This document shows positions 2,476 to 7,492 of a DNA stretch of 64,000 nt, one piece after another. The translations under genes and the position numbers were made by a program. Position 1 is the stretch's first letter. Every line of letters begins with the position of its first letter. This stretch comes from Anaerolineae bacterium (lineage in GTDB: Bacteria > Chloroflexota > Anaerolineae > UBA1429). The DNA lies in NCBI GenBank assembly GCA_040766725.1, contig JAXGPZ010000001.1, positions 2,721,529 to 2,785,528 on the forward strand, read 5' to 3'. The notes under the pieces are model-generated. The model did not search any database and was not told where the DNA came from. It saw only the letters and a list, made by a program, of their open reading frames with translations.

Positions 2476-2869
2476 GAGGCAAGGAGAAGTGTGAGTTGGA
2501 AAGGAGATACGATGTACCCGTCTGGAGCCTTTGCGGGTCCCCGTCCGCTCCAGCTCCTATCTGGTTGTCCGTGTCGGCGCCGTCCTCACCGACACCTATA
2601 TATTAGCAAAGTCAATCAAGTTTGTCAAGTATCTACAGGGGGCTTTTTCGGGTTCTCACGTTATCCGCTGAACTCAGGGGCGGCAAACGCACCCAGGCGT
2701 CGGTCGTCCGCTCGCGGTGGCGCCCCAGCCCCGAAAGGCACGGCCGACGTTGGCAGCGTTTGAGCAGCGCCGCGCGCCGCCTGCCAGCGCCAGCGGCATA
2801 GCTGGCAGCACGTCTGGCGCCGCCGGCCATGGTCTCTGGCCTGCTATGCCAAGTTCGCGCCAAAAACCC

Positions 2870-2899
2870 TTGACAAGGCCCCCCCGCATCTGCTATGCT
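2870..2899 (+). promoter_or_regulatory. near-consensus sigma70-like promoter (TTGACA-N18-TATGCT)
   Basis: TTGACA at 2870-2875 and TATGCT at 2894-2899. It sits about 35 nt upstream of the AGGAGG RBS of the small leader ORF. Confidence 0.6.
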
Positions 2900-2933
2900 G
2901 TGGTTCGGCTGACATTCACAGGAGGTCTATCCA

Positions 2934-3020
2934 GTGGTTCACATGCGTCTCATCGCCCATCTCTGCAAGTTCGGCGTCCTGGGCGCCGTCGTGCGTGGGC
3001 GAGGTGCGCCTGAACGCTGA
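2934..3020 (+). CDS. 28-codon leader-type small ORF (VVHMRLIAHLCKFGVLGAVVRGRGAPER)
   Basis: AGGAGG at 2920-2925, then 8 nt, then a GTG start. The stop at 3018-3020 lies 20 nt before the stem of an intrinsic terminator. Too short to appear in the ORF track. Confidence 0.45.
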   Translation: MVHMRLIAHLCKFGVLGAVVRGRGAPER

Positions 3021-3039
3021 GTGACTCGCTTGCATGCGA

Positions 3040-3084
3040 GGCTCGGCCCGGGGCGCCATCAGTCCCGCGGCCGAGCCTTTTTGA
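3040..3084 (+). terminator. rho-independent terminator / candidate attenuator (GGCTCGGCCCGGGG...CCCGCGGCCGAGCC + TTTTTGA)
   Basis: GC-rich stem of 9 bp or more followed by a T5 run. It sits between the leader ORF and the ABC exporter genes. Confidence 0.6.
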
Positions 3085-3209
3085 TTGGCTCACAACGGCC
3101 GTGGGAACCAGCCCCGGCCGTTGACTCTTTATGGCCGTGCAGGCGCCCTTGGGCCTGCCCGACGCAACGCTGTGACCATCCGCCCTATGCGCACACAAGG
3201 AGAAGAGTG

Positions 3210-3278
3210 ATGAACCGCAGTTCGCACATGGCCCGGCAGCATGGCCTCACGTCTCTGGACCCCGAGGCCCCTGGCTAA
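3210..3278 (+). CDS. 22-codon small ORF (MNRSSHMARQHGLTSLDPEAPG) immediately upstream of the ABC exporter
   Basis: AAGGAG at 3196-3201, then 8 nt, then ATG at 3210. TAA stop at 3276-3278, 37 nt before the exporter GTG start. Confidence 0.35.
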   Translation: MNRSSHMARQHGLTSLDPEAPG

Positions 3279-3315
3279 CGCGTTCGCTCTTTTACACCTG
3301 CACGAGGTCGAGACC

Positions 3316-5082
3316 GTGAACACAGCAACTCGAAACAGTCTACGCGCCTATGCTGCGCTGCTGGCGCACTATGTCAAGCCTTACTGGCGCCAGGCCCTGG
3401 CGCTGACCGTCATCCTGCTGGGCAGCATCGGCCTGTCGCTGGTCAGCCCGCAGGTGGTGCGACGCTTCATTGACCTGGCCCAGTCGCAGGCCGACCTGAG
3501 CCTGCTCATCTATGCCGCCCTCACCTACCTGGGCATCGGTTTGGCGGTGCGCGGCATGGACGTGTCTGTTGCCTACCTGGGCACCAACCTGGGCTATGCC
3601 ACCACCAACCGCCTGCGCGAGGACCTGGCGCGACACCTGCTGGGGCTCGACATGGAGTTCCACAACAGCCACACCTCGGGCGAGCTGATCGAGCGCATCG
3701 ACGGCGATGTGACGTCGTTGACGAACTTTTTCAGTCAGTTCGCCGTGCGGCTGGTGGGCGCCTTTTTGCTGATCCTGGGTGTGGTGCTGGTGATGTTCGC
3801 TACCGACTGGCGCGTGGGCCTGGTCATGGGCCTGTTCGCCTTTGGCTCGCTGGGGCTGATGGTCTACCTCAGCCGCTATGCAGTGCACGAGTCTGAAGAG
3901 GAGCGCCAGGCCAACGCCGAGCTGTTCGGCTTTGTCGAGGAGCGTCTCGCGGGGCTGGACGAGATCCGCGCCAACGGCGCCGGCCCCTACACCATGCGGC
4001 GGCTCTATGAGATCGGCCGCTCCTGGTACGAGCGCACCACGCGCGCCTGGAAGCGCCGTGGCTATCTGTGGGTGTTCATGATGGGCTTTTGGGGCATGGC
4101 CGGCGTCCTCTCGCTGAGTCTGGGCATCCTGTTTTACCTGCGAGGCCAGTTCAGCATTGGCACGGTGTTCATGCTCAACCAGTACAGCATGATGCTGGGC
4201 GATCCGATCGAGCGCATCTCGCACCAGATCCAGGATCTGCAGAAGGCTCTGGCCGCCATCGAAAGGGTGCGCGACCTGTTCGCTCTGCAGCCCAGCATCT
4301 CCAACGGGCACGGCGAGCTGCTGCCCGCCGGCGCGTTGCCGGTGCAGTTCGAGGACGTGGTCTTTCACTATGACGACGGCGACCCCAACGAGCCAGTGCT
4401 GCAGCACATCTCGTTCGAGCTCGAGCCCGGCACCACGCTGGGGCTGCTGGGTCGCACCGGCAGCGGCAAGACGACGCTGACGCGGCTGCTGTTTCGCCTT
4501 TGGGACCCCAAGTCGGGCGCCGTGCGTCTGGCCGGACAGGCGCTGCCCCGCGTCAACCTGGAGAACCTGCGCCAGCGCGTGGGCATGGTGACGCAAGAGG
4601 TGCAGCTCTTTGAGGCCAGCGTGCGCGACAACCTGACCTTTTTCGACGAGACGATCCCCGACGAGCGGGTGATCGCCGTGATCCGCGAGCTGGGCATGGG
4701 CGCCTGGTTCGACAGCCTCGAGAAGGGGCTCGACACCATGCTCCCGCCGGGCGGCGGTGGCCTGTCGGCCGGCGAACAGCAACTGCTGGCCTTTGGGCGG
4801 GTGTTCCTGCAAGACCCGGGCCTGGTGGTGCTCGACGAGCCCTCTTCGCGGCTCGACCCGGCCACCGAGCAGCGCCTGGAGCACGCCATGGATCGCCTGT
4901 TGCGGGGCCGTACGGGCATCATCATCGCCCATCGGCTGGCCACGGTGCAGCGTGTCGACGAGATCATGATCATGGATCAGGGCGCCATCCAAGAGCACGG
5001 GCGTCGCGCCGCCCTGGTGGCCGACCACAGCTCACGTTTCCATCAACTGTTGACCACCGGCCTCGAAGAGGCCTTTGCATAG
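3316..5082 (+). CDS. ABC transporter permease/ATP-binding protein (type I exporter half-transporter, MsbA/BmrC-like), first of a pair
   Basis: N-terminal six-TM region plus Walker A GRTGSGKTT, signature LSAGEQQ and Walker B VVLDEPSS. The GTG at 3316 follows GAGG. Confidence 0.85.
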   Translation: MNTATRNSLRAYAALLAHYVKPYWRQALALTVILLGSIGLSLVSPQVVRRFIDLAQSQADLSLLIYAALTYLGIGLAVRGMDVSVAYLGTNLGYATTNRLREDLARHLLGLDMEFHNSHTSGELIERIDGDVTSLTNFFSQFAVRLVGAFLLILGVVLVMFATDWRVGLVMGLFAFGSLGLMVYLSRYAVHESEEERQANAELFGFVEERLAGLDEIRANGAGPYTMRRLYEIGRSWYERTTRAWKRRGYLWVFMMGFWGMAGVLSLSLGILFYLRGQFSIGTVFMLNQYSMMLGDPIERISHQIQDLQKALAAIERVRDLFALQPSISNGHGELLPAGALPVQFEDVVFHYDDGDPNEPVLQHISFELEPGTTLGLLGRTGSGKTTLTRLLFRLWDPKSGAVRLAGQALPRVNLENLRQRVGMVTQEVQLFEASVRDNLTFFDETIPDERVIAVIRELGMGAWFDSLEKGLDTMLPPGGGGLSAGEQQLLAFGRVFLQDPGLVVLDEPSSRLDPATEQRLEHAMDRLLRGRTGIIIAHRLATVQRVDEIMIMDQGAIQEHGRRAALVADHSSRFHQLLTTGLEEAFA

Positions 5083-5096
5083 TGGAGAATCTGACC

Positions 5097-6938
5097 ATGC
5101 ACGTAGAACAGAGCCCCCGGGTGCCCTGGCTCAAGTACACCTGGCGGCTGATCACCTACAAGCCCTGGCTGTTTGCGGCCAACCTGTTGACCTGGGGTGT
5201 CTTCCATGGCCTGCCCGTGCTCACGGGCCTGGCCGGGCGAGAGATCTTTGACGCCCTCGAGGGCGGCTCTCGTTGGGGCTGGAGCCCATGGGCCTTTGTG
5301 GTGGCCCTGTTTGTGGCCGAGATGTTGCGGCTGGGCGCCTTTCGCGTTGCCTTTGGCATTTTCATCGATCAGTGGTTCATCCTCGAGTCGCTGGTGCGAC
5401 GCAACGTGATGGACCACCTGCTCAACGCGGCGGGCGCCCGGCTGCTGCCCGATTCGTCGGGCGCGGCCGTCACCACCCTGCGCGACGACATCCACGACGT
5501 GGGCGACTGGGTCGAGGGGCTCACCGATCTGGGTGGCCTGGTGGTGTTCGTCAGCTCGTCGCTGGCGGTCATGTTCAGCATCAACTGGGTGATCACCCTG
5601 GTGATCATGCTGCCGGTGCTGGGCTCGGCTGTGCTGGGCATCACCATGGCGCAGCGTATCCGCAAGTATCGCCGCGCCAACCGCGCTGCCACCTCACGAG
5701 TGACCGGGTTCATCGGCGAGGTGTTCGGCGCTGCCCAGCCCGTCAAGGTGGCCTGCGCCGAGGACAACACCACGCGCTACTTTCGCAAGCTGAACGAGAG
5801 GCGCCGCGTGGCGGCCGTGCAAGACACCCTGGCCAGCGAGCTGTTCAACTCGGCCACGCACCTGCTGATCGAGCTGAGCATCACGGCGGTGCTGCTGCTC
5901 GGCGCGCAGTCGATGCGCACCGGCGACTTTACCGTCGGCGACTTTGCCCTGTTCGTGAGCTATATCTGGCCGCTGGGCTTTTATATGCGCTATGTGGGCA
6001 ACATCATGGCGCGGCAGAAGCGAGTATCGGTCTCGTTCGACCGGCTGACCAAGCTGATGGTCGACGCGCCCGAAGGCCAGCTCGTGGCTCACGAGGCGGT
6101 CTATCTCAAGGGCGAGCTGCCCGCCGTGCCGCTGCCGCAGCCCACGCCGGCAGACCGTCTGGACAGCCTGGTGGTGTCGGGGCTCACCTACGTGCACCCC
6201 AGCACCGGCCGCGGCATCCACGCTATCGACCTGTCGCTCGAGCGTGGCGAGCTGGTGGTGGTCACCGGGCGCATCGGCGCCGGCAAGACGACGCTGCTGC
6301 GCGCCCTGCTGGGCCTGGTGCCCACGCAGCAGGGGGCCATCCTGTGGAACGGCAAGCCGGTGAGCGACCCGGCCACCTGGTTCCGGCCGCCTCGCACTGC
6401 CTATACGCCGCAGGTGCCGCGCCTCTTTAGCGAGACGCTGCGCGAGAACGTGCTGGCCGGGCTGCCCGAGATGAACGGCAACCTCGAGAGCGCACTCGAC
6501 CGGGCGGTGATGGACTATGACCTGACCGAGCTCGACCGTGGGCTCGACACGCAGGTGGGCCCACGCGGCGTCAAGCTGTCAGGTGGGCAGATGCAGCGCA
6601 CGGCAGCAGCGCGCATGTTCGTGCGCGAGCCCGAGCTGTATGTCTTTGACGACCTCTCCAGCGCGCTCGATGTCGAGACCGAGGCCAAGCTATGGCAGCG
6701 CATCGGCCGGCTGGCCGGCGCCACCTGCCTGGTGGTGAGCCATCGCCGCTCGGTGCTACGTCGGGCCAACCGCATCATCGTGCTCAAAGATGGGCACGTG
6801 GCGGCCCGCGGCAGGCTCGACGAGCTGCTGGTCACTTCGCCCGAGATGCAGGCACTGTGGCACGGAGAGGACGAGAGCAACGGCCACGCCGTCGTAGAGG
6901 CGGCCGCGGCGCTGACGCCGGCGGCTGGCGCCGCCTAG
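5097..6938 (+). CDS. ABC transporter permease/ATP-binding protein, second half of the heterodimeric exporter pair
   Basis: Walker A GRIGAGKTT, signature LSGGQMQ, Walker B YVFDDLSS. GGAG lies 8 nt before the ATG at 5097. The ORF-track start at 5082 overlaps the upstream stop. Confidence 0.85.
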   Translation: MHVEQSPRVPWLKYTWRLITYKPWLFAANLLTWGVFHGLPVLTGLAGREIFDALEGGSRWGWSPWAFVVALFVAEMLRLGAFRVAFGIFIDQWFILESLVRRNVMDHLLNAAGARLLPDSSGAAVTTLRDDIHDVGDWVEGLTDLGGLVVFVSSSLAVMFSINWVITLVIMLPVLGSAVLGITMAQRIRKYRRANRAATSRVTGFIGEVFGAAQPVKVACAEDNTTRYFRKLNERRRVAAVQDTLASELFNSATHLLIELSITAVLLLGAQSMRTGDFTVGDFALFVSYIWPLGFYMRYVGNIMARQKRVSVSFDRLTKLMVDAPEGQLVAHEAVYLKGELPAVPLPQPTPADRLDSLVVSGLTYVHPSTGRGIHAIDLSLERGELVVVTGRIGAGKTTLLRALLGLVPTQQGAILWNGKPVSDPATWFRPPRTAYTPQVPRLFSETLRENVLAGLPEMNGNLESALDRAVMDYDLTELDRGLDTQVGPRGVKLSGGQMQRTAAARMFVREPELYVFDDLSSALDVETEAKLWQRIGRLAGATCLVVSHRRSVLRRANRIIVLKDGHVAARGRLDELLVTSPEMQALWHGEDESNGHAVVEAAAALTPAAGAA

Positions 6939-6996: not shown

Positions 6997-7025
6997 AAGA
7001 GGGGCGCGCAGTGCGCGCCCCTCTT
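6997..7025. terminator. bidirectional hairpin terminator between convergent genes (AAGAGGGGCGCGCA gt GCGCGCCCCTCTT)
   Basis: Perfect 13-bp GC-rich palindrome between the ABC gene (+) and a membrane-protein gene (-). Confidence 0.5.
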
Positions 7026-7036
7026 CAGGTGTCGGG

Positions 7037-7492
7037 TCAGGTCGATGCTGACGTCCTGAGGCGGTGCGAGGCCAGGTTCAGCGCGCTGCTGATCACGAAC
7101 AGCGCGCCAAGCAGCAGCCACAAGCGTCGGCTGACGGCAGCGAACGGCCACCAGTAGAACATCGCCGTCGCCAGGTAAAGCAGCAGATAGGGCACCAGAA
7201 TCGGCCAACGCGGCGGGCTGCGCCAGGGGATGCGCAGGACGTACTCGACCGTATAGCCCAGGACGGACCACACCAGGTAGAGGAGCCCGCCGGCCCACAG
7301 GGGCCAGGCCAGGCCCCATCGCCGCAGCAAGACGCTCAGGGCGGCCACGGGTATGCTCAGCGCATAGACGATCCAGCCCCAGCGCAGAGCAACAGGCATG
7401 GCCCAACGCCGCACGGCAAAGTGCACCAGCAGCACCGTTTGAAACAGAATCGCGGCGCCCGCAGCCAGCCTCAAAGCCGTGTCTGTTGGCAT
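7037..7492 (-). CDS. hypothetical polytopic membrane protein
   Basis: 151-aa ORF, four hydrophobic helices, Trp-rich. Confidence 0.55.
   Translation of the reverse strand: MPTDTALRLAAGAAILFQTVLLVHFAVRRWAMPVALRWGWIVYALSIPVAALSVLLRRWGLAWPLWAGGLLYLVWSVLGYTVEYVLRIPWRSPPRWPILVPYLLLYLATAMFYWWPFAAVSRRLWLLLGALFVISSALNLASHRLRTSAST

Follow-up and report, generated by a model that had tools for sequence, protein, structure and literature searches.

In the bmrB-bmrCD locus of Bacillus subtilis, ribosome-targeting drugs induce read-through, and the terminator lies within the 162-nt open reading frame (ORF) of bmrB (Reilman et al. 2014, PMC4191407). The attenuators of trp, his, leu and pheA have three pairings, 1:2, 2:3 and 3:4, that exclude one another, and a leader stop codon in or next to segment 2; a terminating ribosome forces the 3:4 pairing, a stall on segment 1 leads to 2:3 and read-through, and without translation 1:2 and 3:4 form together. 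Here we analyse a 64,000-nucleotide stretch of an Anaerolineae genome assembly (contig JAXGPZ010000001.1), referred to as the window, in which a leader with a 28-codon small ORF (sORF1) and an intrinsic terminator (T1) is followed by a second hairpin (T2), a second small ORF (sORF2) and the genes of two ATP-binding cassette (ABC) half-transporters, ABC1 and ABC2 (Table 1). Comparison with orthologous loci and analysis of the predicted RNA folds indicated that positions 2870-3082 are probably a ribosome-mediated transcription attenuator of the four-segment (trp/BmrB) type that controls the operon sORF2-ABC1-ABC2.

Comparison with described leaders

The locus shares with bmrB-bmrCD a leader ORF, an intrinsic terminator and antiterminator and anti-antiterminator folds upstream of a heterodimeric exporter with one degenerate ATP site, and slow translation is the condition proposed to favour the antiterminator in each. 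It differs in that T1 starts 19 nt past the 28-codon ORF, whereas the B. subtilis terminator is inside the leader ORF (PMC4191407), in that the BmrD-like gene (ABC1) comes first and the BmrC-like gene (ABC2) second, the reverse of the bmrC-bmrD order, and in having the extra hairpin T2, the extra conserved sORF2 and a host from the Chloroflexota rather than the Bacillota. The resemblance to BmrB-BmrCD that the earlier note on this DNA had pointed out is thus one of mechanism, alternative folds over the terminator being predicted here also, and not one of membership, since the terminator is outside the ORF and the gene order is reversed. The exclusive pairings, the position of the leader stop and the predicted response to each state of translation are as in the trp-type attenuators, which differ from the leader studied here by a run of regulatory codons and by controlling a biosynthetic pathway rather than an exporter.

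Short leader ORFs and a terminator 5' of a resistance or transport operon are likewise described for mef(A)/msr(D) with msrDL, for vmlR and for ermB with ermBL/ermBL2; some of these antibiotic-responsive leaders are reported to have two such ORFs one after the other, or to use both transcriptional and translational attenuation. The mef/msr(D), vmlR and ermB leaders rely on defined drug-dependent arrest peptides, whereas sORF1 is not conserved as a peptide. The antibiotic-responsive leaders found in the literature comprised vmlR, msrD/mef, ermB with two leaders, lmrC, whiB7-related systems and toiL, and a full-text literature search returned no paper combining Chloroflexi, 'leader peptide' and 'transcription attenuation'.

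Table 1. Positions of the leader elements, small ORFs and exporter genes in the window (SD, Shine-Dalgarno sequence; TMD, transmembrane domain; NBD, nucleotide-binding domain; dG, predicted folding free energy)
Feature	Positions	Strand	Description
Promoter, sigma-70-type	2870-2899	+	-35 TTGACA 2870-2875, 18-nt spacer, extended -10 TGcTATGCT 2891-2899
SD of sORF1	2920-2925	+	AGGAGG, 8 nt 5' of the GTG start
sORF1 (leader ORF)	2934-3020	+	GTG to TGA, 28 codons, encodes VVHMRLIAHLCKFGVLGAVVRGRGAPER
P1 (anti-antiterminator)	2937-3015	+	Long imperfect hairpin, sORF1 codons 2-9 (2937-2960) with codons 21-27 (2995-3015)
RNA motif	2997-3010	+	GGGCGAGGUGCGCC, family pattern GGGNGRRGUGYGYC, common to P1 and the antiterminator, 1 match in the window
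Antiterminator	3003-3057	+	Helices 3003-3007:3053-3057, 3009-3012:3049-3052 and 3016-3022:3041-3047, P2 at the tip, segment dG -35.5
P2	3025-3040	+	Small hairpin CUCGC/GCGAG between sORF1 stop and T1, dG -7.0, equivalent in most orthologs
T1 (intrinsic terminator)	3040-3082	+	Stem 3040-3048:3069-3077 plus 3049-3054:3062-3067, U5 3078-3082, dG -32.4 kcal/mol
T2	3095-3121	+	Second GC-rich hairpin after T1, U-tail poor in the window
SD of sORF2	3197-3202	+	AAGGAG, 7 nt 5' of ATG; A[AG]GGAGA invariant in 6 orthologs
sORF2	3210-3278	+	ATG to TAA, 22 codons, MNRSSHMARQHGLTSLDPEAPG
Hairpin within sORF2	3243-3269	+	GGCCUC 3243-3248 with GAGGCC 3264-3269, RNAalifold consensus of 6 sequences
ABC1	3316-5082	+	Half-transporter (TMD+NBD), GTG start, ABC_membrane + ABC_tran
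ABC2	5097-6938	+	Half-transporter, ATG start preceded by GGAG, ABC_membrane + ABC_tran
Hairpin after ABC2	6997-7025	.	Perfect 13-bp hairpin (AAGAGGGGCGCGC AGU GCGCGCCCCUCUU) separating ABC2 from ORF 7037-7492(-), which is convergent and encodes a membrane protein

Conservation of the leader in orthologous loci

Analysis of the sequence and of the ORF list recovered every part of the cassette named in the earlier note (promoter, AGGAGG, sORF1, T1, sORF2 and the two ABC genes), all with unchanged coordinates. In the promoter scan, which returned 5 promoter-like sites per 6.5 kb where 0.8 were expected, the promoter scored 10 of 12 matches plus the TG of the extended -10, and from its position we infer a transcription start near 2906. 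The leader is more stably folded than its shuffled versions (z = -3.8).

Orthologs were gathered by ABC1 scans of genome and metagenome collections, by protein search and by look-ups of the encoding contigs, and the resulting set comprised 12 distinct leaders with an ABC1 identity of 56-100%, plus more distant loci (individual loci are given as L numbers). The TTGACA and TGnTAnnnT elements were found at the equivalent position in L001, L002, L141, L144 and L147-L153, and GGAGG was kept in all 12 orthologous leaders. When all orthologs with an ABC1 identity of at least 51% and sufficient upstream DNA were considered, the TTGACA/extended -10 promoter, GGAGG, a short ORF and a terminator were present in 15 of 15; the leader ORFs had 23-30 codons (25-30 in the 12 leaders that bear the motif described below) and their stop codons lay 18-29 nt from the terminator stem. 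The small leader ORF and the terminator, the loss of which from orthologous exporter loci would have spoken against the proposal, are therefore retained throughout, and the recurrence of the layout in independent loci indicates that the cassette is more than a chance arrangement. The genes upstream of the leader vary between loci (PMT, MFS, amidohydrolase, TusA and others), from which it follows that the leader belongs to the exporter and travels with it.

Each of the 16 orthologous loci searched contained exactly one match to the motif GGGNGRRGUGYGYC, and 137 other loci contained none. The closest genomes to the window, which has a GC content of about 65%, are metagenome-assembled genomes (MAGs) of Chloroflexota/Anaerolineales, and its sequence was also matched in a metagenome from wastewater in Denmark (JGI 3300000506 'Soeholt') and in an assembly of the Logan collection (SRR27558881).

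Mutually exclusive folds over the terminator

Folding of the full-length leader gave P1, then P2, then T1, with a dG of -44.4 for the P1 region, the apical stem of which is formed by 2972-2978:2982-2988. When the transcript was cut before the 3' arm of T1, the 3' end of sORF1 and its stop codon re-paired with the 5' arm of T1, and the same was observed in five of five close orthologs. The 3' end of sORF1 can thus pair either with the 5' part of sORF1 or with the 5' arm of T1, and the pairings 1:2 (P1, 2937-2960:2995-3015), 2:3 (antiterminator, 3003-3022:3041-3057) and 3:4 (T1, 3040-3077 plus U5) exclude one another; a check of the region for such folds had been advised in the earlier note. The antiterminator helix 3016-3022:3041-3047 contains the TGA stop (3018-3020), and this geometry, with the stop in the antiterminator strand and at a near-constant distance from T1, is the same in the orthologs.

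Comparison between lineages revealed compensatory pairs in P1, at motif position 4 (C:G, A:U, U:A) and at motif position 11 (C:G, U:A). An antiterminator was predicted in 12 of 12 lineage representatives, with 7-18 nt of the T1 5' arm paired to the 3' end of sORF1 and z values of -1.2 to -4.1 against shuffled controls. The sequence of the outer antiterminator helix varies by lineage and its complementarity is retained (GGUGC:GCGCC, GAGUGCGCC:GGCGCACUC and GUGGAG:CUCCAC); the pairing energy of the cognate strands averaged -14.0 kcal/mol, and when strands were exchanged across lineages it was -8.7. Terminators were found at the T1-equivalent place in all orthologs, with a dG of -17 to -32, and the T1 alignment columns showed 90.6% pairing; in the window itself a simple terminator scan overlooked T1 because its stem is bulged. 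The reading of the locus as an attenuation cassette, first put forward in the earlier note, gains support from these alternative folds together with the layout common to the 15 orthologs.

In the proposed mechanism transcription would start near 2906 and a ribosome would load on sORF1, and segment 2 (2995-3022, stop codon included) would have two partners, segment 1 (codons 2-9) or segment 3 (3041-3057). Under normal translation the ribosome at the stop codon would cover segment 2, so that T1 (3:4) forms and transcription ends at 3078-3082. Without translation P1 would sequester segment 2 and T1 would form again. A ribosome delayed within roughly the first 18 codons would break P1 and leave segment 2 free to form the antiterminator, and RNA polymerase would then continue past T1, and past T2 as the weaker of the two, to transcribe sORF2 and the exporter genes. 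The switch would in this way report slowed elongation, caused for example by ribosome-targeting compounds, and turn on the heterodimeric ABC exporter. While the parts with their conservation, the alternative pairings, the covariation of P1 and the coding signature of sORF2 are shown by the present data, the way in which regulation runs, the signal that induces it and any part played by sORF2 are inferred, the most likely outcome being that slowing of the ribosome turns the exporter on.

Several points weigh against this reading. The organism is known from assemblies alone, and an open frame of 28 codons is not improbable by itself at 65% GC. The antiterminator is weak in L148 and L149, the exceptions to the gain in cognate pairing, and alignment covariation of the inner antiterminator helix was not above controls because that helix is nearly invariant. 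In an equilibrium stall scan, with a ribosome mask placed at each codon, T1 won at every stall position; the model therefore depends on co-transcriptional kinetics, and the scan is uninformative about the switch. The GC-rich RNA also gives many alternative pairings, and masked folds of the truncated transcript yielded spurious GC-rich pairs. Lastly, no antiterminator covers T2, the read-through of which has no explanation in the model.

Conservation of sORF1 as RNA or as peptide

Outside the close clade the sORF1 peptides proved not to be conserved in sequence. The motif is translated as V-R-G-R-(G/S)-(A/V)-(P/S) in eight leaders, with R21-G22-R23 invariant, four different codons in use for the second Arg and a fixed distance of 5 codons from RGR to the stop. 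In L150 and L019 the nucleotides of the motif are translated in another frame, in L152 and L153 RGR is replaced by PGW and TGW, and the changes in the second Arg codon are matched by compensating changes in the 5' arm of P1; it is on these grounds that sORF1 is regarded as not conserved as a peptide. Within the close clade the variable sites per codon position numbered 10, 11 and 13, with no excess at third positions. As judged from these comparisons, sORF1 is conserved as RNA and as an ORF of set size and position, not as a specific peptide, and its role would be to position the ribosome on the switch.

No enriched amino acid was shared among the 12 leader peptides. A sensor of amino-acid starvation was rejected, the leaders having no shared enriched codon, and the same result argues against a universal arrest motif and in favour of a leader that senses the speed of translation in general, as experiments have shown for bmrB (PMC4191407).

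Conservation at the RNA level, the different frame of the motif in two loci, the replacement of RGR in two others, the lack of codon periodicity in the close clade and the covariation of P1 could all be accounted for if the leader were an RNA switch controlled by a factor or ligand (riboswitch-like, or a protein-binding attenuator), with P1, the antiterminator and T1 as its expression platform and the ORF incidental or secondary. However, GGAGG, a start codon and a frame of 25-30 codons that ends in the antiterminator strand are kept in every lineage and would be needless for a ligand switch, and the conserved core is only about 14 nt long and is the switching strand itself, not an aptamer-like fold. 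Nor was there a match to Rfam at the gathering score anywhere in the 64 kb, and permissive thresholds gave nothing usable. We therefore consider such a switch unlikely. The best score, 14.9 bits where the gathering score is 75 (E = 1.4), belonged to a weak full-length alignment of window positions 2909-3078 to RF01867, the Caulobacter small RNA (sRNA) CC2171, which shares AGGAGGU...CCAGUG and the terminal hairpin; the leader is not a CC2171 member, and CC2171 itself might be an element made of a leader ORF and a terminator.

Motifs of the '+x+' type arrest macrolide-bound ribosomes, as is known from the erm leaders, and the V-R-G-R of sORF1 could be read as such a stalling motif, which would make sORF1 a drug-specific arrest peptide with the nascent chain as the sensor. 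The invariance of RGR in eight leaders in spite of four codons for the second Arg, and its fixed distance from the stop, are what this explanation has in its favour. RGR is nevertheless absent from the four loci with another frame or another tripeptide and also from L074, L084 and L029, the compensation of the Arg codon changes in P1 means that RNA pairing explains them, and the outer antiterminator strand (3003-3012) would lie under a ribosome that has G22 in its P site. RGR was thus rejected as a general macrolide sensor, being neither conserved across lineages nor independent of P1, and a drug-specific arrest peptide is quite improbable in our judgement.

The second hairpin and the link to the exporter genes

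A hairpin equivalent to T2 was present 5-28 nt past T1 in 12 of 12 loci (the window, L001, L002, L081, L141, L144, L147-L150, L152 and L153), with a dG of -20 to -38. In some orthologs (L001, L147, L148 and L152) it carries a good U-tail and is a proper terminator, and T2 may act as a back-up for termination or as a stabilising element. In L081 and L119 the T2 hairpin contains three tandem copies of a 15-nt unit, GGGGTGGACCCCGAG, of which the sister locus L141 has a single copy.

Two strong hairpins in succession after sORF1, the 88 nt that separate T2 from the SD of sORF2 in the window and the weak full-length match to CC2171 (E = 1.4) would also suit an independent small gene or sRNA made up of sORF1, T1 and T2, with a separate exporter promoter between 3122 and 3200. 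Against this, the promoter scan found no promoter-like site in 3083-3315, and thus none between T2 and sORF2, and this stretch is poorly conserved between orthologs. In L144 and L147, moreover, only about 30-35 nt separate T2 from the start of ABC1; a separate promoter would not fit into this distance, so that the exporter genes must be transcribed through the terminators. Linkage of the leader is without exception to the exporter, not to the upstream gene, which changes, and a conserved antiterminator would have no purpose in a stand-alone gene, which we regard as very unlikely.

Conservation of sORF2

sORF2 was limited to the clade with at least 82% identity, in which six distinct sequences, all of exactly 22 codons, were found. 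Third positions vary in 19 of 23 codons, while positions 1 and 2 vary in 11 and 13; the C-terminus [DE]PEAPG-stop is invariant, and all nucleotide changes within it fall at third codon positions and are synonymous. Judged by this pattern of substitution, sORF2 is very likely translated and selected as a peptide. As to whether the small ORFs are conserved as amino acids or as RNA structure, a comparison that the earlier note had recommended, the answer thus differs between the two, since sORF2 is conserved at the peptide level and sORF1 at the RNA level. The hairpin predicted within sORF2 is supported weakly, by one compensatory A:U pair in L082.

The conserved residues of sORF2 fall within the 10 amino acids that precede the stop, the stretch of the chain that would occupy the exit tunnel of a terminating ribosome; this recalls TnaC and ToiL of topAI (PMC12121999), to which sORF2 has no sequence similarity. 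By analogy with these peptides, sORF2 can tentatively be proposed as a nascent-peptide sensor in which L-x-x-x-[DE]-P-E-A-P-G-stop would arrest the terminating ribosome as a second checkpoint after sORF1 and T1, a proposal that we think doubtful. Were it correct, Rho loading on the spacer between sORF2 and ABC1 could be blocked, or re-initiation at the weak GUG of ABC1 could be set, and the exporter would require two independent translation-linked signals, one of them perhaps an exporter substrate. The spacer is 37-50 nt long and, in 5 of 6 orthologs, rich in pyrimidines and poor in G, a composition compatible with a Rho-linked or re-initiation role. When a ribosome was placed in silico at the sORF2 stop, the unpaired probability of the ABC1 ribosome-binding site was not consistently raised, and erm-type translational attenuation by sORF2, which would unmask that site, is therefore not supported.

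Selection on sORF2 at the peptide level, its invariant C-terminus and its position next to an ABC exporter are also what would be expected if the small ORFs encoded substrates or partners of the exporter, as exported or modified peptides. The ABC proteins, however, lack a peptidase (C39) domain, and none of the neighbouring ORFs was seen to encode a modification enzyme. Below 82% identity the orthologs retain the exporter without sORF2, and the sORF1 peptides are not conserved. Small ORFs with such a function are extremely unlikely on this evidence.

Leaders in more distant loci

A covariance model built from the 12 leader sequences and used to find weaker leaders gave matches upstream of ABC1 in L074 (E = 0.0015), L029 (E = 0.88) and L019/L094 (E = 0.96), and also in two Trueperaceae loci, L060 and L064 (E = 0.05 and 0.19). 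In these two MAGs (L060 about 2730-2830, L064 about 2750-2850) an apparently leaderless ORF directly follows a TTGACA/TACATT promoter and has MERHAVMTPLNRRVVLAALAAACLPPEASAG or MNRVVFVTPLSPPIALAALDGACLPPEASAG as its product; a terminator and then the ABC pair come after it. The two Trueperaceae peptides begin with MER or MNR and end in PPEASAG-stop, and each is the sole leader before the terminator. Their resemblance to sORF2 may be due to chance; as a similarity of sequence it hints at a peptide module reused across phyla.

In L107 and L118, which belong to a low-GC lineage with an ABC1 identity of 45-46%, the leader VIRFFHTKVGIDPVPRKYAFSAPLDS upstream of ABC1 retains the core AGUGCGCC, which is complementary to the terminator loop GGCGCGCU. 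Given this leader, the attenuator family may extend well past the Anaerolineae.

The ABC exporter pair and the flanking regions

Both ABC1 and ABC2 carry the Pfam domains PF00664 and PF00005. ABC1 has a catalytic Walker B (VLDEPSS) and a degenerate signature (LSAGE), while ABC2 has a Walker B without the catalytic Glu (VFDDLSS) and a canonical signature (LSGGQ), which is the pattern of a heterodimeric type IV (ABCB-like) exporter in which one ATP site is degenerate. The nearest solved bacterial structures were EfrCD chain B (EfrD), TM_0288 (TM288), TmrA and BmrD/YheH for ABC1 and BmrC/YheI for ABC2, and the best bacterial PDB relatives of the pair are EfrCD, TM287/288, TmrAB and BmrCD; the relation to BmrCD (E about 1e-60 and 1e-44) is one of generic family kinship.

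Public databases start ABC1 at ATG 3241 (613 amino acids; P0001 and P0002), which overlaps sORF2. This start was rejected, since all orthologs (588 amino acids) begin at the equivalent of GTG 3316, and the ATG 3241 call is probably a mis-annotation that hides sORF2.

The perfect hairpin past ABC2 is a probable bidirectional terminator and would mark the end of the operon. On the other side of the cassette, a strong promoter-like site (TTGACA-17-TAATAT with TG) lies on the minus strand at 2600-2628 and is directed away from the cassette, which makes the spacer 2480-2870 a divergent promoter region. A perfect palindromic hairpin, GGCCCAGCCATTGCTGGCTGGGCC, is located at 2446-2471, in the 5' region of ORF 1616-2482, which lies divergently on the minus strand; it is a hairpin which gave a weak CRISPR-DR16 match far under the threshold (E = 0.46) at a place with no repeat array, and which is probably a structural or terminator element.

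Significance of the leader

A ribosome-mediated attenuator before a heterodimeric ABC exporter is a known kind of switch; the present locus probably adds a member from the little-studied phylum Chloroflexota, with T2 and sORF2 as additions, and the conserved C-terminus of sORF2 makes it a candidate new regulatory peptide. The analysis also corrects the start of ABC1 relative to public databases. The leader ORF appears to be kept as an ORF in the right place while the frame in which the RNA motif is read varies, and this matters for the annotation of small ORFs. For Anaerolineae-type bacteria of wastewater and sediment the leaders provide a concrete, conserved and testable attenuator family, and the proposed tie of the exporter to translation stress suggests a role in tolerance to ribosome-targeting compounds.

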